Origin: a virus
Taxonomy: Duplodnaviria; Caudoviricetes
DNA: 44,206 bases
IMG/VR virus record: IMGVR_UViG_3300010376_000017
Span: 1 to 44,206 of that record
Direction: 5' to 3' (one strand)
The position numbers were made by a program, and so were the translations under genes. This document shows, piece by piece, positions 3,263 to 43,385 of this stretch. The first letter of the stretch is position 1. Each line of letters opens with the position of its first letter. The notes under the pieces are model-generated. The model was not told the DNA's origin and ran no database searches. It was given only the letters and a program-made list of their open reading frames with translations.

Positions 3263-3868
3263 TCATGCCGAACCAGAAGATTCGTGCTCCGAATCGTACG
3301 CCTGCTTGAGCTGGATCATCCTGCGCGTCTGCCAGGCCTTGCCGTACTCGGCGTCCGCGAACAGGCGCGCGAAGCCGGTGATGTGCTTGAGCCGGAGCAG
3401 CTCGTCGGCCTCCAGCCCCAGCTCGGCGCAGATCCGCTCGTCGGTCAGTCCCTGGTCGAGCATCCCGAACACGACCTGCGACATGCCCGCGATCGAGTGC
3501 TTGCCCCTGGCCCGGTTGTGCCGGATCGTCGAGGCCATCCGGCCTGCGAGCGGCGCCTCGATGATCACGACCGGGCAGAGGCCGCCGGTCAGCTCACGGA
3601 CGTCGTCGTAGCGCTTGAGCAGCAGCCAGCGGTGGAAGCCGTCGACGATCACGTACACGTCGCGCTCGCGCTCGTGCACGGTGACGACCGGCTGGGTGAA
3701 GCCGTCCGCCATCACCGAGGTGTGGAGCAGGCGCAGCTCGTTCGGCGCCACCTTGTTCGGGTTGTAGTCGTTCGCCTCGACCTTCTCGATCGGCACCCAG
3801 CGCACGTTCGAGACCGGCTGCGACTCGATCGCCGCCAGCAGTTCGTCGTTGACCTCGTGCAGTCTCAA
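3263..3868 (-). CDS. ibrB: IbrB/YbdM-like ParB/Srx-domain protein
   Basis: ANDYNPNKVAP, GFTQPVV, IVDGFHR, ASTIRHNRARGKH; start (TTG) uncertain. Confidence 0.85.
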   Translation of the reverse strand: MRLHEVNDELLAAIESQPVSNVRWVPIEKVEANDYNPNKVAPNELRLLHTSVMADGFTQPVVTVHERERDVYVIVDGFHRWLLLKRYDDVRELTGGLCPVVIIEAPLAGRMASTIRHNRARGKHSIAGMSQVVFGMLDQGLTDERICAELGLEADELLRLKHITGFARLFADAEYGKAWQTRRMIQLKQAYDSEHESSGSA

Positions 3869-3912
3869 TGCCCCATTCGGGTCATGGACTTTCGTGCGGG
3901 TGCCCGTACACT
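3868..3912 (+). promoter_or_regulatory. Phage promoter/operator, copy 1
   Basis: ATGCCCCATTCGGGTCAT-N4-TTTCGTGCGGG-N6-TACACT; ATG follows 6 nt after the -10 (leaderless). Confidence 0.75.
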
Positions 3913-3918
3913 TCGTGC

Positions 3919-4131: not shown

Positions 4132-4401
4132 ATGCGCGTCCGCGTCTACAGCCACTTCCAGCGCCAGACCTGGGAAGGCAACGTCCCCGACGAGCACTGC
4201 GAGCCGGGCACGCCCGACAACTACACCAGCCGCGTCAACGAGCTGCTGTTCCGCTGCTTCAACCGCGTCGACCGGGAAGACGCCGACCGTCTTGAGGACT
4301 GGGGCTACGAGCTGCCCAGCCTGAGCGTTCACGACGTGATCACCTGGAACGGCCGCTCCTTCCAGGTGCAGCCGACCGGCTTCACCGAGATCACCGGCTG
4401 A
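4132..4401 (+). CDS. Hypothetical protein
   Basis: AAGGAG RBS; PSLSVHDVI..G..F.V...GF motif. Confidence 0.7.
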   Translation: MRVRVYSHFQRQTWEGNVPDEHCEPGTPDNYTSRVNELLFRCFNRVDREDADRLEDWGYELPSLSVHDVITWNGRSFQVQPTGFTEITG

Positions 4402-4578
4402 CCCGACGGCGACGAGGCGGCAAGACACGCCGCCTCCGTCGCTCGCACTGCACGGCCGACTTGCAGACGACCTTGTGCCGTCGATCGGCAGGAACCAGCG
4501 CCAGCCACGACGGCCGCACAACGTGCATTGCTTCGGCGGCGCCGGGCGCTCGCGCCGGATCACGAGCTGCTCGCTCAC
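4391..4578 (-). pseudogene. Possible frameshifted small zinc-finger gene
   Basis: CTLC in one frame and VCKSAVQC in the neighbouring frame, joined by a single missing base near 4475. Confidence 0.35.
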
Positions 4579-5698: not shown

Positions 5699-6265
5699 CT
5701 AGGGGTTCGCGACCTTCTCCTGCTCGACGCCGAACTCGGCGCCGCACGAGGGGCAGATCACCTGGAGCAACTGCTGGTGCTCGCCGTCGAAGCGGTGCTC
5801 CAGCTCCTCCGACCTGTTGTCGATCTCCTCCTGGGTCGGGAACTCGTCCAGCTTCCTGAGCTTCTCCAGCAGCCCGACCACACCGGCGTCCTGCTCGTCG
5901 AAGGTCGAGAGCAGCGACTTGAGCGAGCCGTCGTCCGACCCGGCCAGCTCGCCCAGCGGATCCAGGGTCGCGAGCACGATCCGCTCCTCCGCCTCGTCCA
6001 GCTCGACGTAGGAGACGGGCACGGTCGGCTCGCCCCGATCGAGAGCGAGCGCGACCCGCAGGTGCCCGTCGACGAGGTGGCCGGAGCTGCGGTTGACGAT
6101 CACCGTCTGCACCCAGCCGACGCGATCGAGGACGCCCGCGAGTGCCCGAGACTGGTGCGCGTTGTGCAGCCGCCAGTTGCGCGGGTTGCCGACGAGCGTC
6201 GCCGGGTCGACGTCCTCGTGCCCGACGATCCGCGGCTCCCAGGTGCGTTCTGTGGTCGCGGACAT
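5699..6265 (-). CDS. ParB/Srx N-terminal-domain protein with C-terminal CxxC
   Basis: NPRNWRLH, GWVQTVIVN, LVDGHLR; ICPSCGAEF. Confidence 0.85.
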   Translation of the reverse strand: MSATTERTWEPRIVGHEDVDPATLVGNPRNWRLHNAHQSRALAGVLDRVGWVQTVIVNRSSGHLVDGHLRVALALDRGEPTVPVSYVELDEAEERIVLATLDPLGELAGSDDGSLKSLLSTFDEQDAGVVGLLEKLRKLDEFPTQEEIDNRSEELEHRFDGEHQQLLQVICPSCGAEFGVEQEKVANP

Positions 6266-8648: not shown

Positions 8649-8814
8649 GCTGGAGCGCCTCGCGCGCGAGGCCTGGGAACGCTGGGGACAGTGGGCGAAG
8701 TTCACGAGGTGCGACGGCTGCCAGCAGCAGCTCTACTGCCGCTCACGATCGGGGCAGGGGCGCTGGCTGTGTGTCGACTGCCACGACCAGCGTTCGGGTA
8801 GCGGCACACGATGA
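8641..8814 (+). CDS. Small zinc-finger protein (57 aa)
   Basis: Hand translation: CDGC...CVDC. Confidence 0.6.
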   Translation: MNELERLAREAWERWGQWAKFTRCDGCQQQLYCRSRSGQGRWLCVDCHDQRSGSGTR

Positions 8815-8855
8815 CCCATTCGGGGCATGCAGTTTCGTGCGGGTGGCGGTACAGT
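8811..8855 (+). promoter_or_regulatory. Phage promoter/operator, copy 2
   Basis: ATGACCCATTCGGGGCAT-N4-TTTCGTGCGGG-N6-TACAGT. Confidence 0.75.
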
Positions 8856-8894
8856 GGGAGCGTGACCTTCACCGCCACCGAAAGGACGACGAGC

Positions 8895-10407: not shown

Positions 10408-10493
10408 ACAGCACGGTCGGGATCAACCTGCCCGGCGTGGCGCTCGTGGTGCTCGCGGTCGTCTCGGTGATCGCGCTGATCCACTTCTGGTAG
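10404..10493 (+). CDS. 29-aa single-TM peptide
   Basis: MNSTVGINLPGVALVVLAVVSVIALIHFW; fills gap exactly with overlapping start and stop. Confidence 0.55.
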   Translation: MNSTVGINLPGVALVVLAVVSVIALIHFW

Positions 10494-11059
10494 TGCGCTA
10501 CATCGTCCGCACCGTCGCCGGGCTGCGCCGGGAGGGCTGCGACTACCTGCGCGAGCGGCTGCCGGTCGAGTTCCAGGTCGACGAGCGGCGCGACATCATC
10601 GCGAACTTCGCGGCCGCCTTCCGCCGCCAGGGCACCGACGACGCCGTCCACATGGAGGACGACGTGCTGCTGACGCTCGCCTTCGAGGCGAAGCTCCAGG
10701 CGGCGATCGAGCCGTGGCGCGACCAGCTTGTGCAGATGTTCACTTGTCGCCCGAAGGCCGACCGCGCTGGGTCGCGCTGGGCGCCCGGCCGCGACTTCGT
10801 CCACGCCCAGTGCTTCTACGTGCCCGGCGCCGACGCGCCCCGGCTGGCCGAGTTCTACGCGGGCTGGACGGGCCGCCCGGGCTACGACGCGCAGGCCTGC
10901 GCCGACCTGGGCGTCTCCGACTACCTGATCGCGAACCGGCGCCGCTACCGGATCGTGGTGCCGTCGCTCGTCCAGCACGAAGGCAACGGCTCGCTGGTCG
11001 GGCACGGCGCCTTCATGGACCGCTGGCGCTCGCCCAGCTTCGTCGACGCCTGGGCCTGA
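10493..11059 (+). CDS. Putative GT-A fold glycosyltransferase
   Basis: MEDDV acidic motif, D..VSD, PSLVQHEG..SLVGH. Confidence 0.7.
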   Translation: MRYIVRTVAGLRREGCDYLRERLPVEFQVDERRDIIANFAAAFRRQGTDDAVHMEDDVLLTLAFEAKLQAAIEPWRDQLVQMFTCRPKADRAGSRWAPGRDFVHAQCFYVPGADAPRLAEFYAGWTGRPGYDAQACADLGVSDYLIANRRRYRIVVPSLVQHEGNGSLVGHGAFMDRWRSPSFVDAWA

Positions 11060-11143
11060 GCGCGCCGATCTACCGGCCTACCTTGCTGTCGTCACAGGGG
11101 ATGTGGCGCAACTGGGAGCCGCTCGCGCTCGCTCCAGCCGCGA

Positions 11144-11170
11144 GACAGCCCCCGGGTCTCGGGGGCCGTC
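11144..11170. terminator. Hairpin between convergent units
   Basis: GCCCCCG-GGTCT-CGGGGGC with extendable GAC/GTC. Confidence 0.5.
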
Positions 11171-11177
11171 GTCGGGC

Positions 11178-11738
11178 TTACAGCGCCTTCTGGGCCTCGG
11201 CGCAGACCGGGCAGTTGATCACCTGCTGGGCGGGCGTCAGCTCGGCCCGCTTCTTCCAGCTCGCGGAGTTGAGGCCGCAGAGGGTCATCCCGTTCGCGTC
11301 GAGGACGTGGGTGTAGCGGGAGCCGCGGGCTTTCGCTACCTCGGCCCCGGCCGCCTTCGCGTTCCTGGTCAGCTTGCGCTTGCGCGTCAGCGGCGTCCAG
11401 TCCTGCTTCGGCTTCGTGACCGGCTCGGTCACCTCGGCCTCCTCGCTCGTCGTCGTCGGTTCGGACATCGTGTTCACCTCCTCCGTCGTCGTCGCGGTCG
11501 GCCTGCTGGCCCGGAGGGCGGTGATCGCGCGGGCAGGCCCGCCGATCGTCATCGCTTCGCCGCCGCGGCGCTGGTACTCGTCGCTGGCGGCTCGGATGAA
11601 CGCCCATTCCTCGGTGTCGACGTCCGGCTGGAGGCTCGCCTCCATCGCCTGGATCAGCGGGTCGGCCTTGAGCTGCTCGACCTCGCGCCGGTACTCGTCT
11701 GACTCGATCACGCTGATTCGCTGCCGCGGCCTAGACAT
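11178..11738 (-). CDS. Hypothetical protein with C-terminal H/C metal motif
   Basis: TH...TLCG...CPVC; strong internal RBS before M at 11469 suggests a second start. Confidence 0.6.
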   Translation of the reverse strand: MSRPRQRISVIESDEYRREVEQLKADPLIQAMEASLQPDVDTEEWAFIRAASDEYQRRGGEAMTIGGPARAITALRASRPTATTTEEVNTMSEPTTTSEEAEVTEPVTKPKQDWTPLTRKRKLTRNAKAAGAEVAKARGSRYTHVLDANGMTLCGLNSASWKKRAELTPAQQVINCPVCAEAQKAL

Positions 11739-12303
11739 CGGTCAGCTCGCCGTCGGTGGGGCGGGAGTAGAAGCCGAAGTGCGGGTCGTCGTCGCTCTGC
11801 TGGACGGTCGCGGTCAGGCGCACCGTCTGGCCCTTGAGGTCGGGGCAGCGCGGCGGCTGCTCGACGTACTCGCCCGCCTCGTTGTAGAAGCGGGTGATCT
11901 CGGTCAGCTCGCGGAGCTGGGCGGGCACCGTGCCCCAGACCCGGTTGCCGTCACCCTCGTCGATCAGGCACTTGAGCGTGGGGCCGTAGCCGGTGTCCTG
12001 CTCGCGGGTGGAGATGATCACGCCCTGGATCGTCCGCCGCCCGGCCCGGAACGGCTGGGCGTTGGCGGCGCGCTCGGCGCGGTCGTGCCTCCACTCGCGG
12101 GAGCGGTCGCGGATCTTGAGCACCGCGTCGACCTGGCGCTCGGTCAGCTCGCCGTACTTGAGCTGCTTGTTGAGCAGGTCGCGCAGGAAGACGCGGGTGT
12201 TGCCGTTCGTGCCCGGGTAGAGGCTGGCCGCCTCGTCCTCGGGCGTCTCGATCACGTTGCGGAGGAACTCGACGGCCTCCGCCTGGGCGGTGGCAGCGGT
12301 CAT
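11731..12303 (-). CDS. Hypothetical protein, possible OB-fold C-terminus
   Basis: YGELTERQV..V; GYG...K.....G.RVWGTVP; GFYSRP. Confidence 0.7.
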   Translation of the reverse strand: MTAATAQAEAVEFLRNVIETPEDEAASLYPGTNGNTRVFLRDLLNKQLKYGELTERQVDAVLKIRDRSREWRHDRAERAANAQPFRAGRRTIQGVIISTREQDTGYGPTLKCLIDEGDGNRVWGTVPAQLRELTEITRFYNEAGEYVEQPPRCPDLKGQTVRLTATVQQSDDDPHFGFYSRPTDGELTDV

Positions 12304-12539
12304 TTGACCGCCGCCTTGCCGCCCTGGACGTGAACCTGGCCGTAGAAGTTGCGCTTCGTGTACGGGTCCGGCCCGACTATGAAGTAGGTGCCGTCGGGCG
12401 CCTCGGACACCGGCCCGTCGTACTCATTCCCGAACAGGCTGGTCGCTTCGAGACGGACGGACGCGGGGCTGATCGCTACGGCCTCGCGCACCTCCTTCTT
12501 ACTGGACGGGCGGCGCCCGTTGATGAAGATGCCTTGCAT
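12300..12539 (-). CDS. Hypothetical protein
   Basis: GAGGAGG RBS after promoter copy 3; VGPDPYTKRNFYG. Confidence 0.75.
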   Translation of the reverse strand: MQGIFINGRRPSSKKEVREAVAISPASVRLEATSLFGNEYDGPVSEAPDGTYFIVGPDPYTKRNFYGQVHVQGGKAAVK

Positions 12540-12586
12540 CGTGCTATCGCCTCCTCGGCGTGGTGGGTGAAGTTCTCACGCCGACC

Positions 12587-12632
12587 ACTGTACGCGCACC
12601 CGAACGAAACTGCCATGACTCAGATGGGGGAT
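12587..12632 (-). promoter_or_regulatory. Phage promoter/operator, copy 3
   Basis: Minus strand ATCCCCCATCTGAGTCAT-N5-TTTCGTTCGGG-N6-TACAGT. Confidence 0.75.
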
Positions 12633-12656
12633 CGTGTGTGCGGACGTCCGAACACG

Positions 12657-12701
12657 ATGACGCAAACGGGGGATGCCTTTTCGTTCCGGGTGCCGTACAG
12701 T
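12657..12701 (+). promoter_or_regulatory. Phage promoter/operator, copy 4 (back-to-back with copy 3)
   Basis: ATGACGCAAACGGGGGAT-N4-TTTCGTTCCGG-N6-TACAGT. Confidence 0.75.
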
Positions 12702-12738
12702 GGGCGCAATGCACGGAACACCCACCGAGAGGAGCACC

Positions 12739-12918
12739 ATGCACGACGGGTTCCAGCCCGACCACAAGGCCGCGGCCATTCACCGGGCGCGAGCCGAGCG
12801 GGCCTACCAGGACGCGGAGCGGTTCCGCAAGCTCAAGCGTCCGAGCGGCCAGCGGGCCGCCCTCGAAGAGGCCCGCACCCAGGACCGGATAGCCGAGCTG
12901 CTGGAGACGGGCCGATGA
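12739..12918 (+). CDS. Small hypothetical protein
   Basis: GAGGAG RBS. Confidence 0.65.
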   Translation: MHDGFQPDHKAAAIHRARAERAYQDAERFRKLKRPSGQRAALEEARTQDRIAELLETGR

Positions 12919-13052
12919 AGCGCGCTCTCCTGCTGCTGACGATCCTCCCGCTGATTGCCATCAGCGGCCACGAAGCCGCCAGGCACGGCCTGATGCCGGT
13001 CACGGCGATCGGGGCGTTCCCGATCACCGCCGCGCTGCGGAGGCGACCATGA
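12915..13052 (+). CDS. Small hydrophobic/membrane peptide
   Basis: MKRALLLLTILPLIAISG...; coupled both sides. Confidence 0.55.
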   Translation: MKRALLLLTILPLIAISGHEAARHGLMPVTAIGAFPITAALRRRP

Positions 13053-13306
13053 GAGCACGCTACGCCAGCACCTGCGGCGCCTGCGAGCGTCCGATCGAGC
13101 AGGGCGACCAGATCACGAACGACGGCGAGGGCTGGGTTCACTCCGGCTGCCGCCAGCTCCGCGACAACCTGCGCGACCCGGAGTACGCGCGGGGCTACCA
13201 CGACACGCGCCACGCGCAGATGGCAGGGCCGCCCGGCTCCGCCGCCCGCGAGGCCGCCTACGCGGCAATGGAAGCGCAGTGGGCGCGAGAAGGGTTCGAC
13301 TACTGA
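13049..13306 (+). CDS. Small zinc-ribbon protein
   Basis: ARYASTCGAC..PI..GD.I...WVH..C. Confidence 0.7.
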   Translation: MRARYASTCGACERPIEQGDQITNDGEGWVHSGCRQLRDNLRDPEYARGYHDTRHAQMAGPPGSAAREAAYAAMEAQWAREGFDY

Positions 13307-13485
13307 TGCGCCTCCTGATCACGATCAACCTCGGCAACGAGGCGATGCAGACGGCCGACGACGTGCGCGACGCCGTGGACGAAGCCCTGATCGGCTACGG
13401 CGTCGAGCGGCTGTCCCTCAACCAGTACGGCTCGATCCGCGACGACAACGGCAACACCGTCGGCGTCTGGAGGGTGACCGAATGA
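13306..13485 (+). CDS. Small conserved phage protein
   Basis: I.LGNEAM...GSIRDDNGNTVGVW. Confidence 0.7.
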   Translation: MRLLITINLGNEAMQTADDVRDAVDEALIGYGVERLSLNQYGSIRDDNGNTVGVWRVTE

Positions 13486-13694
13486 GCCGCCAGCGCGTCT
13501 ACATCTACAAGCCGGTCGGGTTCGACATCTTCGACCGCCGCAACTACCAGCCGAAGCCGGGCACGCGGCTGGTCAAGTGCCAGCCTCCCGGCACTCCACG
13601 CAACGGCACGATGGGGCACTGCTACGTCGAGGACGCCGAGACGGGCAAGTTCTACGGGCTAGTCCTGGAGAACAGCCTGGAGCGCGAGCGGTGA
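13482..13694 (+). CDS. Small hypothetical protein (SH3-like beta pattern)
   Basis: Coupled ORF. Confidence 0.65.
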   Translation: MSRQRVYIYKPVGFDIFDRRNYQPKPGTRLVKCQPPGTPRNGTMGHCYVEDAETGKFYGLVLENSLERER

Positions 13695-13939
13695 GCGGCT
13701 ACACGCCGCTGCCCGAGCCGCCGCCAGCTCGCCGCTGGCGCTACGAGGTCGGGGACGAGCTGCTCTACCTGTCCTTCGGCGGGGAGCGGCGACGCTGCCG
13801 GGTGACCGAGAAGCACGCCGACATCAAGCACGGCCGCCCCGGCTTCAACGCGATCCTGCTGGGACCGAACGGCGAGCCGAGGATCTGGGAGGAGCAGGTG
13901 TGGGGCTACGACGAGCAGATCGAGCAGGTGATCCGATGA
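13691..13939 (+). CDS. Small hypothetical protein
   Basis: Coupled ORF; DIKHGRPGF...WGYDEQI. Confidence 0.65.
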   Translation: MSGYTPLPEPPPARRWRYEVGDELLYLSFGGERRRCRVTEKHADIKHGRPGFNAILLGPNGEPRIWEEQVWGYDEQIEQVIR

Positions 13940-14163
13940 GGACGTACTCGGAGCAGGAAGCGCGCGAGCGGCTGCGCCCGCTGGGCAACGTGACGGTGAT
14001 CGCCACCGATCGCGACCGGATGTTCGCCGCGAGTCGGCTGCGCGTCCAGGGCGATCTGCCCTGGGGGTTCGGCACCTGGGAGGAGCCGCGTTCACCATCC
14101 CGCACGAAACCCGCTACGCTTGATCCGTCCGTGACACCGAACGAAAGAGAGGAGGACGCATGA
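13936..14163 (+). CDS. Small hypothetical protein
   Basis: Coupled ORF; 3' part overlaps a promoter-like element. Confidence 0.45.
   Translation: MRTYSEQEARERLRPLGNVTVIATDRDRMFAASRLRVQGDLPWGFGTWEEPRSPSRTKPATLDPSVTPNEREEDA
14099..14120 (+). promoter_or_regulatory. Promoter with inverted 11-bp box
   Basis: CCCGCACGAAA (reverse complement of TTTCGTGCGGG)-N5-TACGCT upstream of strong RBS. Confidence 0.5.
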
Positions 14164-14588
14164 ACGACACCACACCGACGATGCTGGAGGCGAGCGACGA
14201 CACGAAGACTCCACTGCGCGTGTTGCTGATCCCGCTCAACGGGCCGCTTGAGTTCCACGAGCTGAACAGCGAACGCTCAGGGCTGGAGACGCTCCAGAAG
14301 CTCGTAGGCGGCTACGTCGAGGCGATCAGCCTGCCCCCGTTCATCAAGGACGGTGGCAAGGCGACCGCCTACATCCACGAGGAGGGCAAGTACGAGTACC
14401 CCGGCCAGGACGGCGTCAACTGGAGGGCGACCGACTACATGGTCCCGGGGATCGGGCTGTTCCACGGCGACTGGATAGCCGGGCCGATGATCCTCGCCGG
14501 GTTCGACCCGAGCACGGGCGAGCACGCCGAGCTGCCTGAGTCCGTGATCCGGCGAGCGCGCGTGATCGAGCGAGAGTCAGGCCGCTGA
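14160..14588 (+). CDS. DUF3846-like protein
   Basis: LETLQKLVGGYVE...HEEGK...N.RAT...D.IAG. Confidence 0.75.
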   Translation: MNDTTPTMLEASDDTKTPLRVLLIPLNGPLEFHELNSERSGLETLQKLVGGYVEAISLPPFIKDGGKATAYIHEEGKYEYPGQDGVNWRATDYMVPGIGLFHGDWIAGPMILAGFDPSTGEHAELPESVIRRARVIERESGR

Positions 14589-14815
14589 TGGGCTACGTGA
14601 TGATCTTCGGCGCCTGCATCTCCTGTCGGCGGACGTTCGGCTTCAACCCGAGCTGGGTGCCGTCCGTCTTCGTCAACGGGAAGCGCGAGCCGGTCTGCCG
14701 CGACTGCGTCGAGCGGGCGAACCCGCTGCGAGTCGAGAACGGGCTGGAGCCGATCAGGATCCACCCGGAGGCGTACGAGCCTGCCGACGAGAACGAGGTG
14801 CTCTGGAATGAGTAA
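14588..14815 (+). CDS. Small zinc-finger protein
   Basis: CISC..TF.FNP..VPS...PVCRDC. Confidence 0.7.
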   Translation: MGYVMIFGACISCRRTFGFNPSWVPSVFVNGKREPVCRDCVERANPLRVENGLEPIRIHPEAYEPADENEVLWNE

Positions 14816-14990
14816 GCGCCCGATCACTGCCGAGACGCTCCGCCACGTTCGCGAGCGGCGTGAGAAGGAGCGGGACAAGCTGGCCGCCGAGTACGAGCTG
14901 GCGGCGAGCATGCTCGACGAGCTGTGGCCGCGGGAGTTCCGCAACGCCGCCAGCCACCTGCGCCACGAGGCCGAACGCTGGAGGCGCTGA
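14808..14990 (+). CDS. Small hypothetical protein
   Basis: Overlapping coupled ORF, helical. Confidence 0.55.
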   Translation: MSKRPITAETLRHVRERREKERDKLAAEYELAASMLDELWPREFRNAASHLRHEAERWRR

Positions 14991-15035
14991 CGCTATTCTG
15001 TTCGGAGACCGGGACAGCGAGAGGAGGTGACGCGA

Positions 15036-15293
15036 ATGGCAACCACAGCACGGATGGGACGGCCGGTGGGCGGCCTGACACCGACCCGCCGGACACAGCT
15101 CCGCCGGATCGTCCGCAGGATGCGCCGAGCCGAGCAGAACGCCCTGGACGTGCGAGGCGAGCTGGCGACGGCCGTGACCGAGGCCCAGTCCGAGGGCGCG
15201 AGCGTCCGCATGATCGGAGAGGCACTCGGCTACGGGTCTTCGACGATCCACGCCCTGATCCACCGGGGCGAGTCAACAGACGACGAGGAGTGA
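15036..15293 (+). CDS. HTH DNA-binding protein
   Basis: GASVRMIGEALGYGSSTIHALI; GAGGAGGTGA RBS. Confidence 0.75.
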   Translation: MATTARMGRPVGGLTPTRRTQLRRIVRRMRRAEQNALDVRGELATAVTEAQSEGASVRMIGEALGYGSSTIHALIHRGESTDDEE

Positions 15294-15294
15294 G

Positions 15295-15699
15295 ATGGAC
15301 ACCTACACCACCACGGCCGCCCTGGAGGCGGCCTTAGCACCAGTGCAAGCCGAGCACAAGCGGCTGACGGAGGAGATCGAGCGCGCCGAGGCGACGCTCG
15401 CGGAGCTGCGGACGAACCAGCGCCGCACGAAGCGGGTGCTCGACGCGCTCAATCCCCCGGCGAAGCCGAAGCCGAAGCCGTCGACGAACGGCCACGGCGA
15501 GCTGTCCCTCGACAGGCTGGAGGAGTTCCTGCACACGCTGCCGCCCGACCAGGACGTGACGTCAACCGATGTCGGGACGGCGACCGGCGTCAGCCGCAAC
15601 CACGCGGCCGTCCAGCTCCGGGCCGCCCACGACCGCGGGAGCCTGCGGCTCGACCGGCGCGGCCGCGGCGGCCAGCGCATCTACCGGGTAATCGCGTGA
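15295..15699 (+). CDS. Coiled-coil plus winged-HTH protein
   Basis: TSTDVGTATGVSRNHAAVQL...G.L.....G....Y. Confidence 0.7.
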   Translation: MDTYTTTAALEAALAPVQAEHKRLTEEIERAEATLAELRTNQRRTKRVLDALNPPAKPKPKPSTNGHGELSLDRLEEFLHTLPPDQDVTSTDVGTATGVSRNHAAVQLRAAHDRGSLRLDRRGRGGQRIYRVIA

Positions 15700-16100
15700 A
15701 GGGCAACGGCCACCGGCGCGGCGCCAGCCTGTACGAGTTCCGCGACCTCGACCTGCTGTTCCGGCTGGCCGAGGCGGGCGGCGAGGAGGGCTGGGCCGAG
15801 ACGGAGGCGCTGGCCGAGCTGATAGGCCTCGACGACAACCGGCCGGTCGGCACCCGCCTAGCCTGGATGCGGCGTTACGGGATGACCGAACGCTCCCGGG
15901 ACGGGCTGTGGAGGCCCACGGCGGCCGCCGAGCGGGTCAGGCAGGCCCGGATCAGGGCCGCGGCCCAGCGGACGCTGGAGGCGCTGCCCGAGGAGTCGAT
16001 GATCGAGACAATGGCCGCGGTCACGGCCAGGTACAGGCTGGCCGATCCGATGATCGCCGCGATGCTCCGGCGCGAGTTCCTGTTCGGGACGAAGCGGTGA
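15696..16100 (+). CDS. Putative winged-HTH protein
   Basis: TEALAELIGL...VGTRLAWMRRYG...G.W. Confidence 0.6.
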   Translation: MKGNGHRRGASLYEFRDLDLLFRLAEAGGEEGWAETEALAELIGLDDNRPVGTRLAWMRRYGMTERSRDGLWRPTAAAERVRQARIRAAAQRTLEALPEESMIETMAAVTARYRLADPMIAAMLRREFLFGTKR

Positions 16101-16543
16101 GCTGCATCCACTGCGGCGCCGAAGTGTTCTGGAGCTTCCCCCGGGCCGAGGATCCCTGCTTCGAGTGCCGCCAGCCGGTCGGGCAGGCGTCGATGACGAG
16201 CTACCGCGCCGGGTGCCGCTGCTCGCTCTGCCGCCGCGCGAACAGCGATCGCCAGAACGACTACATGGCCCGGCATCCCGACCAGCGGAGTCGGCACGCC
16301 GAGCGCGAGCTGGGCCGCTACTACGAGCAGCGGGGCGACCGTCGCCGCTACGTCGGGCGCGAGTCGACGCCTGCCTGTCGGACGCTCCAGTCGAAGGTGC
16401 GCTTCATCGACTTCTACATCTTCGACAGCCACGTGCTCTACAAGCAGGTCTGGCAGGCGGCCGTCAGCGAGAACAACGAGCGTGGCCTGCGCGCGGCTCG
16501 CAGCCAGATGCGCGGCAAGCTCTGGCTGCTCAATCACTCCTGA
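16097..16543 (+). CDS. Cys-rich hypothetical protein
   Basis: CIHC, CFEC, Y..GCRCSLC motifs. Confidence 0.6.
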   Translation: MSCIHCGAEVFWSFPRAEDPCFECRQPVGQASMTSYRAGCRCSLCRRANSDRQNDYMARHPDQRSRHAERELGRYYEQRGDRRRYVGRESTPACRTLQSKVRFIDFYIFDSHVLYKQVWQAAVSENNERGLRAARSQMRGKLWLLNHS

Positions 16544-16547
16544 CACG

Positions 16548-16592
16548 ATCCCCCGTTTGTGTCATGTCCTTTCGTGCGGGGGTCGGTACATT
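16548..16592 (+). promoter_or_regulatory. Phage promoter/operator, copy 5 (upstream of the non-coding region)
   Basis: ATCCCCCGTTTGTGTCAT-N4-TTTCGTGCGGG-N6-TACATT. Confidence 0.75.
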
Positions 16593-16595
16593 AGT

Positions 16596-17276
16596 GGGTG
16601 CAGCGCGGCTTCACCCCCCGGAGACAAGGGGCGAGGGTGAGGCGCCAGGGCCACCGCGACCGGCCCGGCTGCGAAAGGGCCAGCCCGCGCGGACGCCGAC
16701 AAGCGGTCTTCACCGACCGCCCCTCCAGCACGGAAGCAATGAGGTGTCCCCCCGATCCGGCGCCCGCAACGAGGCGGGCGAGAATCCCTTTCGACGGGGC
16801 GGCGGAGCGCGTGCCAGCGGCACCCGCCAGCCCGCAAGGGTGAGGCGGGGTTAGCAACCCTGCGCGCTCCCGAGCCGACGCGTACAGCAAGCCGTGACGA
16901 GGGGCGGCCGGTCAAGACCGACCGGCGACCGCTACCGAGGCGGGATGATCCCGCTCCGAGGACGCCACCCGGGCGTGGAGTTCCGAGGGCACGGAGCGCA
17001 ACGGGCCTCGGAGCGCGCGGGTTTGATTCCCGCGGGCCTCGGAAGCGGCCGCCACCGGCTAACCCCCGACAGCGCCGGACGACAAGCGGGGGAGTCAGCC
17101 ACGCGCGAAGCCGGGAGTGGTAGCTCCCGGCCTGCGTGCCAGCGAGTACGCTCCTTGCGGCGGAGCCGGGCGGTCAGGCTCCATCCCCCCACGGGCGAAC
17201 CGCACGCCCGGCTCAAAGGAGCCTATTTCCCAGCCACCCGGCTCCGTCAACTCCTTACACTCGTGGGCGTCCACCC
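16596..17276 (+). ncRNA. Candidate large structured non-coding RNA (~680 nt)
   Basis: Only long gap without a credible CDS; own promoter; nested long-range helices, GNRA loop, T-loop arm; 5' GGGUG can pair with 3' CACCC. Confidence 0.7.
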
Positions 17277-17290
17277 GATCGGAGGAACCC

Positions 17291-17383
17291 ATGCGCGAGA
17301 CGACCGAGCCAGACACCGAGTCGACGCCCGAGGCGCCACCGGCCGAGCCTGAGCCGGAGAGCGAGGAAGGGGAGGCGGGTTAG
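17291..17383 (+). CDS. 30-aa acidic Pro/Glu-rich peptide
   Basis: GGAGGA RBS; MRETTEPDTESTPEAPPAEPEPESEEGEAG. Confidence 0.5.
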   Translation: MRETTEPDTESTPEAPPAEPEPESEEGEAG

Positions 17384-17421
17384 ACTCCACGCGCGACTCG
17401 TCGTCGCGGTGTGGTGGTGTT

Positions 17422-17450
17422 GAGCGGGGCCGTTCGTCGCGGCCCCGCTC
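17422..17450. terminator. Terminator-like hairpin between convergent units
   Basis: Perfect 11-bp stem GAGCGGGGCCG/CGGCCCCGCTC. Confidence 0.65.
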
Positions 17451-17462
17451 GCTTCTCCAGGT

Positions 17463-18290
17463 CTACTCGTCCGGCGCCAGGGCCGCGTCGCGACTCTCGT
17501 CCGCCTCTTCGGCGGCGATCGAGGCGGCCAGCTCCCACATGAGCTGCTGGTGCTCGATCAGGCTCTCGGCCATGCTCCGGGTCATGTAGCGCGCGTCCGG
17601 GATGCCCAGGAACGTGCGCGCCTCCGTGACCCAGTCCTCGTTCGGGCGCAGCTCCTTGAGCTTGCCCATCAGCTCCCCGACCTTCGCGAGCTGCTCCGGC
17701 GACGGGCGCACCTCGGGCGGCAACGGGCCGGGGGAGTCATCCGCCGGAGCAGACGCAGGCGGCGCCTCCTCGGCCTCCACAGCGTCGTCCAGCGGCATCT
17801 CCTCGGCGGCCGCTGGCTCGTATCCGGCCAGTACGACGATCTGGCCGAGCGGCGCTCGCAGGGCGCGGCTGATCCCGCGCGTCTGGGCCATGCTGCGGAT
17901 CGCGAACGGATCGCGGTCCTTCCATTTCTCCTCGGCCCGCGAGCACTCGCCCTCGGCAGCGCCGACTACCGCGCCGTCCGAGATCCTGCGCGCCTCGACG
18001 TGGGCGATGATCCCGTCGCCCGTCTCGTTCGGCCGGGTCGAGATCACGACCGGCGCGATCCCGAGCATCCCGCCCAGGGTCGTCCAGCCCTCGACGTAGA
18101 CGTGCTTGCGGCCGCGGATCGTCTTGAACAGCTTCTTCTGCTCGATCACGTCCATCAGGGCGCTGGCGATCTCGCCCATCCGGGCGAGGGCCAGCTTCGG
18201 GTCGCCGGTGCCGAACAGGGTCGCCGGGAGCGGCGCCGGGTCGTAGGGGACGAGATCGGTGATCTCGACGTCGTCGTCGACTTCGGTCAT
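17463..18290 (-). CDS. Putative single-strand annealing/recombination protein
   Basis: I.GRKHVYVEGW...AEGECS..E..W...AIRSMAQTRGISRALR core plus acidic tail; in replication module. Confidence 0.55.
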   Translation of the reverse strand: MTEVDDDVEITDLVPYDPAPLPATLFGTGDPKLALARMGEIASALMDVIEQKKLFKTIRGRKHVYVEGWTTLGGMLGIAPVVISTRPNETGDGIIAHVEARRISDGAVVGAAEGECSRAEEKWKDRDPFAIRSMAQTRGISRALRAPLGQIVVLAGYEPAAAEEMPLDDAVEAEEAPPASAPADDSPGPLPPEVRPSPEQLAKVGELMGKLKELRPNEDWVTEARTFLGIPDARYMTRSMAESLIEHQQLMWELAASIAAEEADESRDAALAPDE

Positions 18291-18511
18291 GGGGCAGTCC
18301 TCTCTCCCTGCGAGCGCAGGGCGTAGCGTCGGCCGATCTCGGCGTACGCCTCGTTGTGGCAGTCGAGGCACATGTTCGAGCGGCCGATCTGTCGCTTGTG
18401 CTTCGGGCACTGGACGAGCTTGCGGCCGCCGCGTGGGTAGGCCGCGGGGAGTCGCAGCTCCGCGGCGACGAGGGGCAGCATCTTGCTCGCGTAGTGCCTC
18501 CAGGTGGTCAT
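18287..18511 (-). CDS. Small zinc-finger protein
   Basis: CPKH...CLDC; coupled to downstream gene. Confidence 0.55.
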   Translation of the reverse strand: MTTWRHYASKMLPLVAAELRLPAAYPRGGRKLVQCPKHKRQIGRSNMCLDCHNEAYAEIGRRYALRSQGERTAP

Positions 18512-18552
18512 TCGCTGTTCACGCTACCGAACGAATCGGACGGCACGTCCCT

Positions 18553-18678
18553 GGTTCGCCAACCCCTACTCACACGCTGGCGGCGCAAGTGGTTAGCCAA
18601 CTCCCCTCGAATCTGGCGAACCTCTTGCGCCGCCAACAGGTGAGTAGGGGTTGGCCAACCTGTCACTCAGGTTCGCCA
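18553..18678. repeat. Long imperfect palindrome with GGTTCGCCA-like iterons; candidate replication origin
   Basis: Nested inverted arms of 21 bp (20/21), 12 bp (12/12) and 9 bp (8/9) directly after the primase-helicase stop. Confidence 0.7.
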
Positions 18679-20576
18679 CCTGTCTCGAATTCTGGCGGAA
18701 CTGTGTCGGGTATATCTGGAAGTCGCCACCATGCGCGGGCTGGAAAGCCTCTCTGCTCACTTTCTATATTCAGACGCTTCGCGGCACGCTGGATTGTCCG
18801 GTCACTCATCCCCTGGCGCTCCGCTTGCGCAATCAGCGGCTCCTTCTCGTGCCACTCGTGATCCTCCAGAGCCATGAGCAGAAACGCCTCCGCTTGCTCC
18901 GTTCTGCCGATCTTGCGTACAGAGGACAGAACATCGTCGCGGGTCACGTCATCGGCCTTCTCGACGTACTCCAGCTTCATCGTCTCGAACTCCTCGCCGC
19001 CGATCCCGATGAAGGTCGGAACCACCTGCCAGCGCTCGGTCGGCTGGAGCTGGCCGTAGTTGTGCTTGTGCTGCGCGATCAGCCGCTTGAACTCGTCCGC
19101 GACTCCCTCGACGTCCTTGTCCGGGGTGACGGTGATCACCGATCGGGCGGCGTTGTAGAAGCCGGTCGAGCCGGAGATCCGCAGGTAGATCTCCTTCGAG
19201 TCGGTCTTGTTCAGGTGGGCGATCATCACGGCCGCGATGTGGCGCTCCTCGGCCAGCCGGTGCAGCTTCCCGAGAACGACCCTGACGTGCTGGTCACGGT
19301 GACTGTCCAGGCTCAGGTCGAGGCTGGCGCTGATCGGGTCGATGATCAACAGCTTCGCGTCGACCTCCTCGACGTGCCGGGCGACCTCGTCGAAGTCGGT
19401 CGGGAAGGTCAACGTGCCCTCCTCGATCGGCAGCGTCAGGTCGTGGAAACGGGCCGGGTTCCCACCGGCAGCCGCGAAGCGTGGACGAAGCACGTGCTGG
19501 GCCGAGTCCTCGGAGCTGATCACCAGCACCTGCTCACCGCCGTTCGTCACGTCGGCGGCCCAGCTCAGGGCGAGCGCCGACTTGCCGAGGCCGCCGACTC
19601 CGGCGATCAGGGTCAGCGTCCCCAGCGGCACCCAGCCCTGGATCAGCCATTCCGGGTGGAGCGGCGTGATCTCGGACATAGCCCTGCGGATCACCCGGCG
19701 CTTCGCAGGCCGTCCTGGGGCCGCTGGCGGCGCCGGGGATGGCTCTCCGGGTGCGTCCCCGTTCAAGATCCGCAACGCCTGCTCGCGCAGCGCGACCTGC
19801 GCCGGATCGTGTCCCGGGTAGCGCCGGGCGACGTCGTAGGCGAGATCGGCTACGTCCGCGTCCGTCAGCTCGCCGTCCTGCTCGCAGCGTTCGTGGAACA
19901 CGGTCAGCAGGGCGACGGCGATCTCGTTGCCGGTCATGCCCTGCCGCCGCATCGCCCCGGCCATCCTCGCCAGGGTGACGTGCCGCTTGCCCGCCGGGAT
20001 CGGGCCACCGCCGCTGGGCACCGCGATCGGCCGTCGGCCTCCGGCGAGCAGCGTGTCCGGCGCCGGTGCCGGGTTCCGGTCCTTGTGCTCGATCCAGGCG
20101 TGAGCCGGGCGCCCTTCCTCGCCGCCGGTCTGACTCGGCGGAGCGACTACGAACTGCCCATCGGCCTTGAGTTCGAGACCGTCGGCCAGCACCCGGCCCT
20201 GGATCTTGCCGCCCGGGTGCTCGAAGTAGTAGTGGCGACCGCCGCCGCCGGTCGAGACGGTCGGGGTCGACGGCAGCGGCAGGTACGCGGCCAGGGACTC
20301 GAAGCCGCCGGAGCGCGGGTCGACGTCGAGCACGAGCAGCTTGGAGGCGACGCCGGTGACCACCCCGACGTTCGCGTTCGGCCAGCCCTCCCACCATCCG
20401 GCGATCAGGTTCGGGTCGCAGCTCGCCTGCTCCGGCCACTTGCCTAGGCGCGGGTGCTTGCCCGGCGTCGAGCAGTTGAGACCCTTGCGGCAGGAGCAGT
20501 ACCCGACGGCCATGTCGTGCAGCGGGATCACCTTCCAGCCGCGCTGGGCCAGGTAGAGCGCGTCACTCAGGCTCAT
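18663..20576 (-). CDS. Bifunctional primase/polymerase fused to AAA (RepA-like) helicase
   Basis: CSC...C..PGKHP, NVGVVTG, VLDVD, TGGGGRHYYF; G.RH..L helical domain; Walker A GVGGLGKS, Walker B LIIDP, HLNK. Confidence 0.92.
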   Translation of the reverse strand: MSLSDALYLAQRGWKVIPLHDMAVGYCSCRKGLNCSTPGKHPRLGKWPEQASCDPNLIAGWWEGWPNANVGVVTGVASKLLVLDVDPRSGGFESLAAYLPLPSTPTVSTGGGGRHYYFEHPGGKIQGRVLADGLELKADGQFVVAPPSQTGGEEGRPAHAWIEHKDRNPAPAPDTLLAGGRRPIAVPSGGGPIPAGKRHVTLARMAGAMRRQGMTGNEIAVALLTVFHERCEQDGELTDADVADLAYDVARRYPGHDPAQVALREQALRILNGDAPGEPSPAPPAAPGRPAKRRVIRRAMSEITPLHPEWLIQGWVPLGTLTLIAGVGGLGKSALALSWAADVTNGGEQVLVISSEDSAQHVLRPRFAAAGGNPARFHDLTLPIEEGTLTFPTDFDEVARHVEEVDAKLLIIDPISASLDLSLDSHRDQHVRVVLGKLHRLAEERHIAAVMIAHLNKTDSKEIYLRISGSTGFYNAARSVITVTPDKDVEGVADEFKRLIAQHKHNYGQLQPTERWQVVPTFIGIGGEEFETMKLEYVEKADDVTRDDVLSSVRKIGRTEQAEAFLLMALEDHEWHEKEPLIAQAERQGMSDRTIQRAAKRLNIESEQRGFPARAWWRLPDIPDTVPPEFETGGEPE

Positions 20577-20749
20577 TCCCGCATCCACCGCTCGATACTC
20601 AACTCGTAGCCCTTGACGACACAGGGCAGGCCGCAGAAGCGACGTAGGTGCCTGGTCGTGATCAGGATCACGTGGTCGGCCGTCAGCGGCAGCCGACAGT
20701 CGGGGTTCGCGCAGTAGAGCAGCGGGCAGCCGTCAGGGTCGTCGGCCAC
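20573..20749 (-). CDS. Small zinc-binding protein (58 aa)
   Basis: CANPDC...FCGLPC; ATGA coupling to primase. Confidence 0.55.
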   Translation of the reverse strand: MADDPDGCPLLYCANPDCRLPLTADHVILITTRHLRRFCGLPCVVKGYELSIERWMRE

Positions 20750-23337: not shown

Positions 23338-24534
23338 CTACTCGATCGTCTCCAGGCTGGGCAGCGGCAGCTCCTCGACCGTCAGCCAGTTCGGCTTGTT
23401 GTCCTGCACCGCCTGCCAGATCTCGGCGCCCTGCATGAAGTTGCCGGTCTTCACCAGCTCCCAGTCCTGGGTCACGATCGAGGTCACGTGCTGGCGCTGC
23501 GCCTTCTCGTGCAGGTACGGCGGCAGCTTGCGGTCCATCTCGTTGAACTTGCGCGCCAGCGGCAGCCGGTACTCCGGCACGACGAGCGCCCGCAGCAGGT
23601 AGTCGCGGTACTCGCGCCAGCTCTCGAAGGTCGGCGGCAACTCGCGCGGGAAGTAGTCCTGCGGCCCGAACTTGCCCGCCATGTCGACGCCCGGCAGCCG
23701 CGCGCACAGGCGCTCGTACGTCTCCGGCTCGAACTCCTGGCAGTAGAACAACCAGCGCACCGCCGACTCGTGGTGCAGGTTCGAGACGCGCATGTCGCGC
23801 ACCGGGATCCCGAAGCGGTACTGGATGTCGTAGATCCGCGCGTACTCCCAGCCGTGCTCGTGAATCGCCTTCCAGACGTCGGCGTGATGCCAGTCGTAGA
23901 GCGGGTGGAACGTCCACACGTCCTGGCCGTCGACGCGCTCACCGTTGCCCCAGGTGACCCACTTGTAGGCCGCGTAGTAGGTCAAGCCCATGAAGCGGTT
24001 CGGGGACTCCTCGCAGCGCACCCCGGCGATGTGCGCGACCGGGCGGCCGCCGCCGTGCGCGACCGCGAAGCGCGAGAAGAGGTCGAAGAAGCGGGGCGTC
24101 CCGTAGACGTTCCGCTTGTACGAGAGCGGGTCGGCCGGGTGGATCCACTTCTCCTCCTCGGCCGGGTCCCAGGCGTGCAGCCAGTGCGAGTCGCGCGAGC
24201 TGGCGTTGAAGATCTGGTGCGGCACCTGGAGCCAGTACGGCTCCACGTCCGGGTGACGCATCCACGATCCGACCAGGTCGACGACCGCCTGCCACTCCGC
24301 CTCCTGGTCGAGCCAGTAGACCTTGAGCGGCAGGTAGCCGCGCTCGCGCGCGATCTCCAGGCACTTGTGGAAGAGGACGGTCGAGTCCTTGCCGCCGGAG
24401 ACGTTGACGAACACGTTGCCGTCGAACTCGTCGTAGATCCAGGCCAGCCGCTCCAGCAGGGCGTCGTGGACGTTCTGGGTCGAGTAGATCCGCAGCCCGG
24501 CGCCCGAGGGCCGCTTCTTCGGGGCGCGCTTCAT
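23338..24534 (-). CDS. ibrA: IbrA/YbdN-like PAPS-reductase-family (PP-loop) protein
   Basis: SGGKDS, LDQEAEW, GVRCEESPNR, HPLYDW..DVW, MRVSNLHHE. Confidence 0.9.
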   Translation of the reverse strand: MKRAPKKRPSGAGLRIYSTQNVHDALLERLAWIYDEFDGNVFVNVSGGKDSTVLFHKCLEIARERGYLPLKVYWLDQEAEWQAVVDLVGSWMRHPDVEPYWLQVPHQIFNASSRDSHWLHAWDPAEEEKWIHPADPLSYKRNVYGTPRFFDLFSRFAVAHGGGRPVAHIAGVRCEESPNRFMGLTYYAAYKWVTWGNGERVDGQDVWTFHPLYDWHHADVWKAIHEHGWEYARIYDIQYRFGIPVRDMRVSNLHHESAVRWLFYCQEFEPETYERLCARLPGVDMAGKFGPQDYFPRELPPTFESWREYRDYLLRALVVPEYRLPLARKFNEMDRKLPPYLHEKAQRQHVTSIVTQDWELVKTGNFMQGAEIWQAVQDNKPNWLTVEELPLPSLETIE

Positions 24535-42833: not shown

Positions 42834-43385
42834 TCACGTCGGCTGGCGACCGAACGCGCGGAGCAGGAAGTCGTTGTGCTCCTCCTCCGGCGATTTCCTC
42901 TGCTCGGCCGTCTTCCGCGCGCCACCGTCAAAACCGGCGGTGGTCGGCTTCGGCTTCTCGCCCAGCAGCTTCGTCAGCTCCTCCGCGCGCAACTCGATCT
43001 CCTCGCGCGTCGAGCCGTGCAGGAACTGGAGCGTGTCCAGGCCGAGTCCGTGGCTGGCCGCGACCTCGATTCTCAGGTCGAGCATCTGCCTCCGCTCCAC
43101 CTCGCCCTTGAGCCGGTCGCGCTCCGCGACCGTCCGCTCCAGCTCGCTCTTGTCCGCGTCCTCCCGCTCCTGGAGCTTCTCTTTCAGCTCCTCGTTCTCG
43201 TTGCGGTGCTTCGCGTTCTCGTTGCGTAGCTGCTTGACGTAGGCCTCGGAGTACGTGCGGCCCTGCGGCTCCTCCGCGACTGGCTGCTCTCCCCCGTCGG
43301 GGTTCTGCCCCTCACCGGCGTCGGGCTTCTGGCCCGGCTGCTCGCCGGTTGCGGTCGGCGTCTCGGTCTCGGCGGCGTCAGCCAC
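42834..43385 (-). CDS. Capsid scaffolding protein
   Basis: YVKQLR.E.AK.R, KSELE, L.G...EEI...A; between portal and capsid. Confidence 0.85.
   Translation of the reverse strand: MADAAETETPTATGEQPGQKPDAGEGQNPDGGEQPVAEEPQGRTYSEAYVKQLRNENAKHRNENEELKEKLQEREDADKSELERTVAERDRLKGEVERRQMLDLRIEVAASHGLGLDTLQFLHGSTREEIELRAEELTKLLGEKPKPTTAGFDGGARKTAEQRKSPEEEHNDFLLRAFGRQPT

Follow-up and report, generated by a model that had tools for sequence, protein, structure and literature searches.

A predicted 680-nt structured element in a soil myophage genome, probably a large orphan phage RNA of a new class

What fills the longest gap in a phage genome whose remainder is tightly packed with genes? The virus record analysed here over its whole length (44,206 bp; hereafter the window) is complete, with direct terminal repeats and a GC content of 69%. 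Under a codon model its longest gap was found at positions 16544-17462, and a 680-nt element (16598-17277) lies inside this gap. Few bacterial or phage RNAs exceed 500 nt and fold in complex ways, and the small number studied so far brought surprises, such as RNA-only nanocages.

The genome contains genes for terminase, portal, scaffold, capsid, tail sheath and tube, baseplate, endolysin and a Prim-Pol/helicase, and this gene content indicates a contractile-tailed phage (myophage). Words of the element were found in eight sequencing runs, all eight being soil metagenomes, one of which may be where this record comes from. The capsid family is big in metagenomes (500 matches among 8000 candidates scored), and no match to it was found in INPHARED or in GTDB. 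The closest terminases of cultured phages belong to phages of Streptomyces and other actinobacteria; we infer an actinobacterial host phylum, with caution because the best of these terminases reach 33% identity or less. ARAGORN detected no tRNA gene in the genome, and neither a reverse transcriptase nor a homing endonuclease was found among the 57 ORFs scanned. Two ParB-like genes, a PAPS-reductase-like gene and a weak glucosyltransferase match (3263-3868, 5699-6265 and 23338-24534 on the minus strand, 10493-11059 on the plus strand) may together hint at DNA modification.

The element is flanked by a block of small plus-strand genes ending at 16543 and by a convergent replication block ending at 17463, within which the Prim-Pol/helicase gene lies at 18663-20588. 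Upstream of the element, the gene at 15696-16100 (plus strand) encodes a 134-aa protein that has 214 relatives and falls in no Pfam family, and that at 16097-16543 (plus strand) encodes a Cys-rich 148-aa protein with homologues confined to its own cluster. The 275-aa protein encoded at 17463-18290 (minus strand) belongs to a large soil family (353 matches) that has no Pfam entry and corresponds to PHROG 19042, of unassigned function; its gene commonly adjoins a primase-helicase gene, and a single-strand annealing role is a guess. No match to this family was found in 401 genomes from the phylum of G046.

Does the element encode a protein? All 12 ORFs overlapping it were found to have negative codon log-odds, ranging from -0.15 to -0.73 per codon, whereas 17 of 17 held-out small phage genes, the control for this test, scored positive. 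Protein coding by the element was therefore rejected, in agreement with the sequence-only reading, which had described about 700 nt of a packed genome as lacking an RBS-led, protein-like ORF. Ten ORFs of the element were looked up in a protein collection, and none was present. The relatives that could be found are near-identical, strain-level contigs only, and those of strain X5 bear on the same question. A 1-nt deletion at 16701 in X5 would frameshift the 5' ORFs. Across the ORF at 16894-17352, the X5 indels add up to multiples of three, yet a stretch of 29 codons is frameshifted, and third-position bias is absent from the substitutions (6 of 15).

How might the element be transcribed? It follows the fourth of four plus-strand copies of a promoter-like repeat (16548-16592), which consists of an imperfect operator-like palindrome (consensus ATGAC-N8-GTCAT), a 17-nt spacer beginning with TTTCGT, and the -10 hexamer TACATT. 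The motif occurs five times in the genome, at 3868-3917, 8811-8860, 12657-12706 and 16548-16597 on the plus strand and at 12582-12631 on the minus strand, and fronts islands of small genes opposed to the main minus-strand operons; the copies at 12582-12631 (minus) and 12657-12706 (plus) face away from each other as an adjacent, divergent pair. An RBS and start codon lie within 40-50 nt of three other copies and at 222 nt from the fourth. The claim that a phage promoter with its -10 element at 16587-16592 precedes the element holds as far as the hexamer is concerned, which is there and belongs to one of the five copies; from its repeated occurrence and layout, we infer that the repeat acts as a promoter, and the -10 spacing would place the transcription start at about 16598-16599. 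No change in the hexamer is listed for strains X5 and X8, and G16580 is changed in both. The motif was absent from the related phage loci searched, and a pattern scan of viral contigs returned no loci.

Is the element folded beyond what its composition would produce? Against dinucleotide shuffles, z-scores of -3.6 for 16590-17280 (20 shuffles) and about -4.7 for 16598-17276 (46 shuffles) were obtained. For the core (16686-17277), z was -6.09 on the plus strand and -4.89 on the minus strand (100 shuffles each), and its energy was matched by none of the 100 shuffles on either strand; in this check, which had been proposed from the sequence, the element thus beats its shuffles. The plus-strand fold is also better defined (ensemble diversity 66) than all 48 control windows, whose lowest value is 81.5 and which sample alternate windows across the first 33 kb of the genome. 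A better-defined fold than that of the element was reached by one or more of the 46 shuffles (51.8) and by one of the 58 folds of gap strands in related phages. When 150-nt windows were scored (12 shuffles each), 17101-17250 alone was notable over the element, with z of -4.3, and values elsewhere in the genome went down to -4.6; in terms of these predictions, the folding signal is long-range. Elsewhere, 150-nt windows with z of -4 or below on one strand (12 shuffles each) are 1951-2100, 4351-4500, 11101-11250, 19501-19650 and 43051-43200, mostly in or beside genes.

The anatomy of the fold was taken from the maximum-expected-accuracy (MEA) prediction on the plus strand, with helices checked letter by letter. 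A 5' domain of three hairpins (16603-16690), closed by GCGCG/CGCGC, is predicted with pair probabilities of 0.76-0.98; its hairpin 16608-16616/16635-16643 has 9 bp, including one U·G. The core (16689-17274) is predicted to be a wheel closed by a long-range helix, H1, in which 16689-16705 pairs with 17258-17274 at 13 of 17 Watson-Crick positions and which is predicted on both strands. H1 is the true closing helix of the model and was missing from the sequence-only reading, as were the T-loop-type hairpin, the downstream ORF and hairpin, and the strand ambiguity described below. The closure proposed there, GGGUG/CACCC, pairs at 5 of 5 positions on paper, but its 5' strand begins upstream of the inferred transcription start, and X5 deletes one C of the 3' strand.

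Five arms are predicted within the wheel. Arm I (16704-16920) has a 22-position stem (16704-16725/16899-16920) with two mismatches, C·C and A·C, followed by internal loops (AAGCAA/GCAAG), a three-way junction and a hairpin with a GCAA tetraloop; CGCCCGC/GCGGGCG pairs at 7 of 7 positions and GGAGCGCG/CGCGCUCC at 8 of 8. The inner part of this arm (16726-16898) folds differently on the minus strand. Arm II (16920-17054) is a long stem, paired at 9 of 10 positions in 16924-16933/17044-17053, that leads to a four-way junction with helix probabilities of 0.90-0.99. One hairpin of this junction, CGCGGG-UUUGAUU-CCCGCG (17016-17034), has a 7-nt loop that we take to be of the T-loop type. Arms III and IV, the latter with a GGUA tetraloop, together with a short variable hairpin, occupy 17057-17158; here 17057-17063/17094-17100 pairs at 6 of 7 positions, CCCCG pairs with CGGGG, and the helix 17110-17118/17123-17131 is present. 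Arm V (17159-17248) contains 17159-17174/17233-17248, enclosing AGGCUCC/GGAGCCU and CGGGCG/CGCCCG. Apart from the end closure, every helix proposed from the sequence was recovered, each with a mean pair probability of at least 0.88.

Between arm V and H1, a pyrimidine-rich linker (17249-17259) is single-stranded in two folds and has no change listed in X5 or X7. It contains CUCCUU, which is complementary to Shine-Dalgarno-type words and presumably resembles the 3' end of 16S rRNA. GACAAG occurs in three largely unpaired copies (joint P about 0.02 against shuffles, for a motif picked post hoc). Three pseudoknot candidates of 5 bp were found among the unpaired stretches, the best of which (17022-17026/17213-17217) loses a pair in X5. 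Four to five multistem junctions are predicted in the 680-nt fold. Separately, the 49 nt at 16799-16847 consist of four words of 10-11 nt with second copies, in swapped order, in the 5' domain (16634 and 16679) and ahead of arm V (17134 and 17157), a duplication that could allow strand exchange. Three of these second copies are altered in X5, and a conserved function of the six direct repeats was rejected on this ground.

How does the predicted fold fare among strains? Nineteen substitutions, all from run X5, were mapped on the fold predicted from the window alone; four of them reappear in another study (X4 at 16962 and 16963, X8 at 16641, X7 at 17159). The 19 substitutions break four MEA pairs, against 7.6 expected, and form one compensatory pair (joint P 0.007, or 0.0045 for pairs with p > 0.9). 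This compensatory change, G17194A with C17208T, converts G-C to A-U in the terminal hairpin of arm V, and a second double change, C17190G with G17211C, converts C-G to G-C across a bulge beside the same helix; both come from one peripheral hairpin on one contig (461 nt, depth 4.5). No covarying pairs in long helices were found among the strain contigs. In the 5' domain, C16615T (C-G to U·G) and G16641A (U·G to U-A) retain plus-strand pairing, and C17099T retains its pair as G·U. X5 carries four extra nucleotides after 17052; these can pair with 16920-16923 and would extend a helix across 130 nt from 4 bp to 8 bp. Since the same insertion creates a local palindrome of 6 bp together with 17054-17059, it may instead have arisen by template switching. 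Five X5 changes cluster at 17149-17158, and two of the four pair breaks fall within 17154-17158, where the small hairpin survives by hand realignment. G17114A breaks a pair in mid-helix.

Divergence was about 4% in the RNA (21 of 524 positions counted) and 14% (15 of 106) in a contig of the upstream gene (Fisher P 2e-4), a contrast in which the upstream contig is possibly from another strain and four differences of the main contig are unlisted. The covariation among homologues that had been suggested as a test of the fold could thus be viewed at strain level, where two double changes in one hairpin and one helix-completing insertion stand beside one mid-helix break. These strain changes are selection-like evidence from one comparison, and not family covariation. 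Overall, the element is very probably a selected structure, and it is probably a functional RNA.

What kind of molecule would it be? The main rival to a stand-alone RNA is a very large leader that would control, in cis, the translation of a short ORF downstream, either like a riboswitch or by sensing a protein. An RBS (GGAGGA) and a 30-codon acidic ORF (11 D/E, 1 K/R) are located at 17281-17383 on the plus strand, and the ORF may be translated. In favour of a leader, strand 17261-17276 has two alternative partners: 16689-16703, which leaves the RBS free, or the RBS and start codon themselves, which are then hidden. Folding the region locally (-13.9 kcal/mol), or leaving out the 5' strand of H1, puts both the RBS and the start codon in pairs. 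Once the ORF is included, the two alternatives come out nearly level, the RBS-hiding hairpin, in which RBS and start pair with 17263-17276, reaching about 0.4-0.45. X5 conserves the frame of the ORF (net +3) and its start codon (ATG to GTG), and three other copies of the promoter-like repeat have genes within 50 nt. Against it, the RBS-hiding hairpin loses one pair in X5 (C17288A), no Rfam riboswitch matches the element, and the ORF has a marginal codon score (+0.09 per codon, near the bottom of the range for true genes) and a product absent from the protein collection by exact look-up. To our knowledge, a leader of 690 nt for 30 codons has little precedent, and 680 nt is far more structure than the leaders we know of require. 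The leader reading is regarded as unlikely. Between the element unit and the convergent replication genes, a GC-rich hairpin (17423-17456), seen in the sequence and in the fold, is likely a terminator; it was not picked by a U-tract scan.

Which strand is functional? The question arises because many plus-strand A·C mismatches turn into G·U pairs on the minus strand. The functional molecule might be the minus strand, as read-through RNA from the convergent replication operon or as a single-stranded DNA structure during replication. Within the shared helices, the internal mismatches of the plus strand are five A·C and one G·U, so the minus strand has uninterrupted stems of 14, 13, 11 and 10 bp. 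Its minimum free energy is also lower, G17114A and A17043C yield G·U pairs on it, and the permutation test of strain changes is stronger there (three broken and three compensatory pairs; P 0.002 and 5e-5).

For comparison, both strands were folded for 22 RNase P and 18 tmRNA genes from the phylum of G046; 27 of 30 RNase P loci were obtained, five of which were skipped by an orientation check, and 18 of 30 tmRNA loci were obtained, with genomes marked unpublished left out. At the corresponding positions, the sense strands of these 40 controls show 22 G·U against 17 A·C, and for this reason the ratio of 1 G·U to 5 A·C in the element is weak evidence. Base composition points both ways: G exceeds C on the minus strand, a bias shared by the sense strands of 36 of the 40 controls, and A exceeds U on the plus strand, as in 35 of 40. 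The z-score, ensemble definition, composition-corrected energy and a discriminant favour the plus strand. This four-feature discriminant gave a log-likelihood ratio of +6.6 to +9.4 for plus and was right for 40 of 40 controls in-sample, with the element atypical on both strands. In addition, C16615T and C17099T preserve pairs on the plus strand only, the repeated promoter points to the plus strand, and a consensus scan of 12000-19000 found no promoter-like site on the minus strand. With promoter direction counted in, the plus strand is the probable functional strand, and a minus-strand molecule is distinctly doubtful.

A further reading holds that the stretch is a non-functional or decaying GC-rich spacer, derived partly from short internal duplications, and that its fold is incidental. 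The stretch is 73% GC, its six direct repeats of 10-11 nt exceed the shuffle mean of 1.2 (P 0.002; as many are present in 3 of 61 genome windows), a more unique fold was reached by at least one of 46 shuffles, and relatives lack a homologue. However, none of the 100 shuffles matches its energy on either strand, it diverges less than the neighbouring gene and carries paired double changes, and the genome is otherwise tightly packed. An incidental fold is held to be improbable.

Could the element belong to a known class? Over the window, every Rfam model stayed below its gathering score, and models of large RNAs, introns, riboswitches and ribozymes gave no hit at E <= 10 in sub-windows 16400-17500, 16590-16930 and 16915-17295. 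OLE, RNase P, SRP, riboswitches and ribozymes were excluded by their Rfam model scores, and ROOL by its unmatched covariance model. GOLLD was set aside since its Rfam model, including the conserved 3' domain, is unmatched and the window has no tRNA genes, an adjacency that is typical and not strict. ARAGORN and Rfam both returned no tmRNA, and ARAGORN no tRNA, in the window; the tRNA-Sec model scored 13.8 bits against a cut-off of 47, and the junction geometry does not fit a tRNA. A group I or II intron is contradicted by the absence of an Rfam match, by the upstream gene ending at its own stop (16543) and by the next large gene being convergent. Candidate antisense targets within the phage were short chance matches only. 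Because these and the homologue searches were empty, the element is by score not GOLLD, ROOL, OLE, tmRNA, RNase P or an intron. The proposal from the sequence of either a high-GC member of a class such as GOLLD or ROOL or a new class loses its first half, since no Rfam match was found, and keeps its second. Size, phage location and a multi-junction fold would suit a very divergent high-GC member of GOLLD, ROOL or an intron-derived class; with no such model at E <= 10 in the three sub-windows, no tRNA genes in the genome and no convincing pseudoknot, we consider this highly improbable.

Homologues were sought with exact words or single sequences, an approach that would miss those below about 70% identity. 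No distant relative was found by blastn against INPHARED and PLSDB. In viral contigs, an exact 24-mer returned nothing, a loose helix pattern returned at least 120 loci of which none was confirmed by nhmmer, and a pattern of T-loop plus GACAAG returned 19 loci that are tRNAs or chance; one pattern in genome contigs gave 23 chance loci. Searching through neighbours gave no viral loci for the 275-aa protein and primase and 31 metagenome loci, one of which is this genome; the RNA was absent from the other 30. The capsid route led to 45 viral records (11 near-complete) with short chance matches only. Fifteen of these 45 were searched whole (973 kb) with nhmmer and three single-sequence covariance models, and the best non-self hits (E 0.03-0.1) were judged chance on inspection of their alignments. 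Since it was found in none of the 45 capsid-related records, the element appears to be accessory. Among the 401 genomes mentioned above, a DNA search gave 27 short matches, the 20 inspected being chance, and model R1 had no hit in 151 genomes of the same phylum. A literature search returned nothing on this element, and six window words were absent from the three supplementary files of PMC10690425 that were available.

Conserved gaps in related phages, tried as candidates, proved to be scaffold or other genes. One gap of about 500 nt in a related phage (L230 11084-11590, minus strand, record G023) has a very unique fold (diversity 0.074 per nt) and contains ACGACAAGCG, as does the window at 17078-17087; it has no alignment to the element and no Rfam match. 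Short tandem or direct repeats occur in apparent gaps of other related phages (L218 12285-12700, L232 13363-13546 and L227 6059-6142).

A replication-origin transcript of the ColE1 RNA II or T4 R-loop type, priming or opening DNA beside the primase-helicase module, would suit the position at the end of the convergent block with its Prim-Pol/helicase gene and a size that we take to be akin to that of ColE1 RNA II, but is scarcely credible given that the phage has its own primase gene, that no AT-rich unwinding element or iterons lie nearby (72% GC) and that phages with the same neighbour genes lack the element.

The element probably represents a class of its own among large orphan phage RNAs, with one lineage so far. 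How does it compare with large phage RNAs already described? In the portions of PMC5737381 and PMC12286853 that were available, ROOL resembles it in being a phage RNA of about 600-700 nt with several multistem junctions, accessory and of unknown function, with a stated average of 581 nt (PMC5737381). As described in the same portions, ROOL differs in often lying near tRNA islands and in having three pseudoknots, whereas the element has neither tRNAs nor a supported pseudoknot; ROOL has about 580-660 nt and six multistem junctions, and the element 680 nt and four to five predicted junctions. It is therefore ROOL-like in a loose sense only, as a large orphan phage RNA with a predicted fold. GOLLD, in the available part of PMC12286853, is likewise a large RNA of phages and prophages with possible tRNA-like parts; many of its members exceed 800 nt, whereas the element is shorter, has no covariance-model match and has no neighbouring tRNAs. 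A precedent is given by the very abundant ncRNAs of unknown function that are described in Rhodococcus phage WC1 and in cluster A mycobacteriophages in the part of PMC10986025 that was available. These are also non-coding and from phages of high-GC Gram-positive hosts, one of them lying mid-genome in WC1 (PMC10986025), but their expression was demonstrated, whereas the element is predicted from sequence and has no sequence match in INPHARED. The 7-nt T-loop-type hairpin, the four-way junction and the cloverleaf order recall tRNA, tmRNA and other T-loop RNAs; unlike tRNA, the element has no acceptor stem or CCA end, its loop at the D-arm position is 3-5 nt and its linkers are 0-1 nt.

The reading that we prefer, at a probability of roughly 45%, is that the element is a plus-strand, stand-alone RNA of 680 nt, expressed from the repeated promoter and folded into a 5' domain and a five-armed wheel, which most likely acts as a decoy or scaffold for a host factor. 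Plus-strand transcription would begin near 16598-16599 at the operator-controlled promoter, and the 3' end would come either from processing near 17277 or from an end at the hairpin 17423-17456. The RNA would be co-regulated with the small-gene blocks that have the same operator-like palindrome and is predicted to fold into the three-hairpin domain and the wheel. Its size, context and motifs suggest that it might act in trans on a host factor that binds RNA or takes part in translation. Speculatively, this factor would be bound by the T-loop-type hairpin, the GACAAG loops (three in all) and the exposed linker with CUCCUU, and the freeing of the RBS of the 30-codon ORF upon H1 closure would, equally speculatively, be a side effect. 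In its boldest form, held here as a long shot, the element would be a new RNA class of abundant uncultured soil myophages, without kinship to GOLLD, ROOL or OLE, that acts in trans on host translation or defence through its T-loop and anti-Shine-Dalgarno-like strand, and that switches on its own 30-codon peptide through a long-range helix spanning 570 nt.

What would such an element mean? Its present value is bounded by a single lineage and by the ambiguity of strand. A predicted fold of 680 nt with no family and its own repeated promoter is a target for in vitro transcription, probing and cryo-EM, all of which can be carried out free of the host. The element would extend large folded RNAs to high-GC soil phages without tRNAs.
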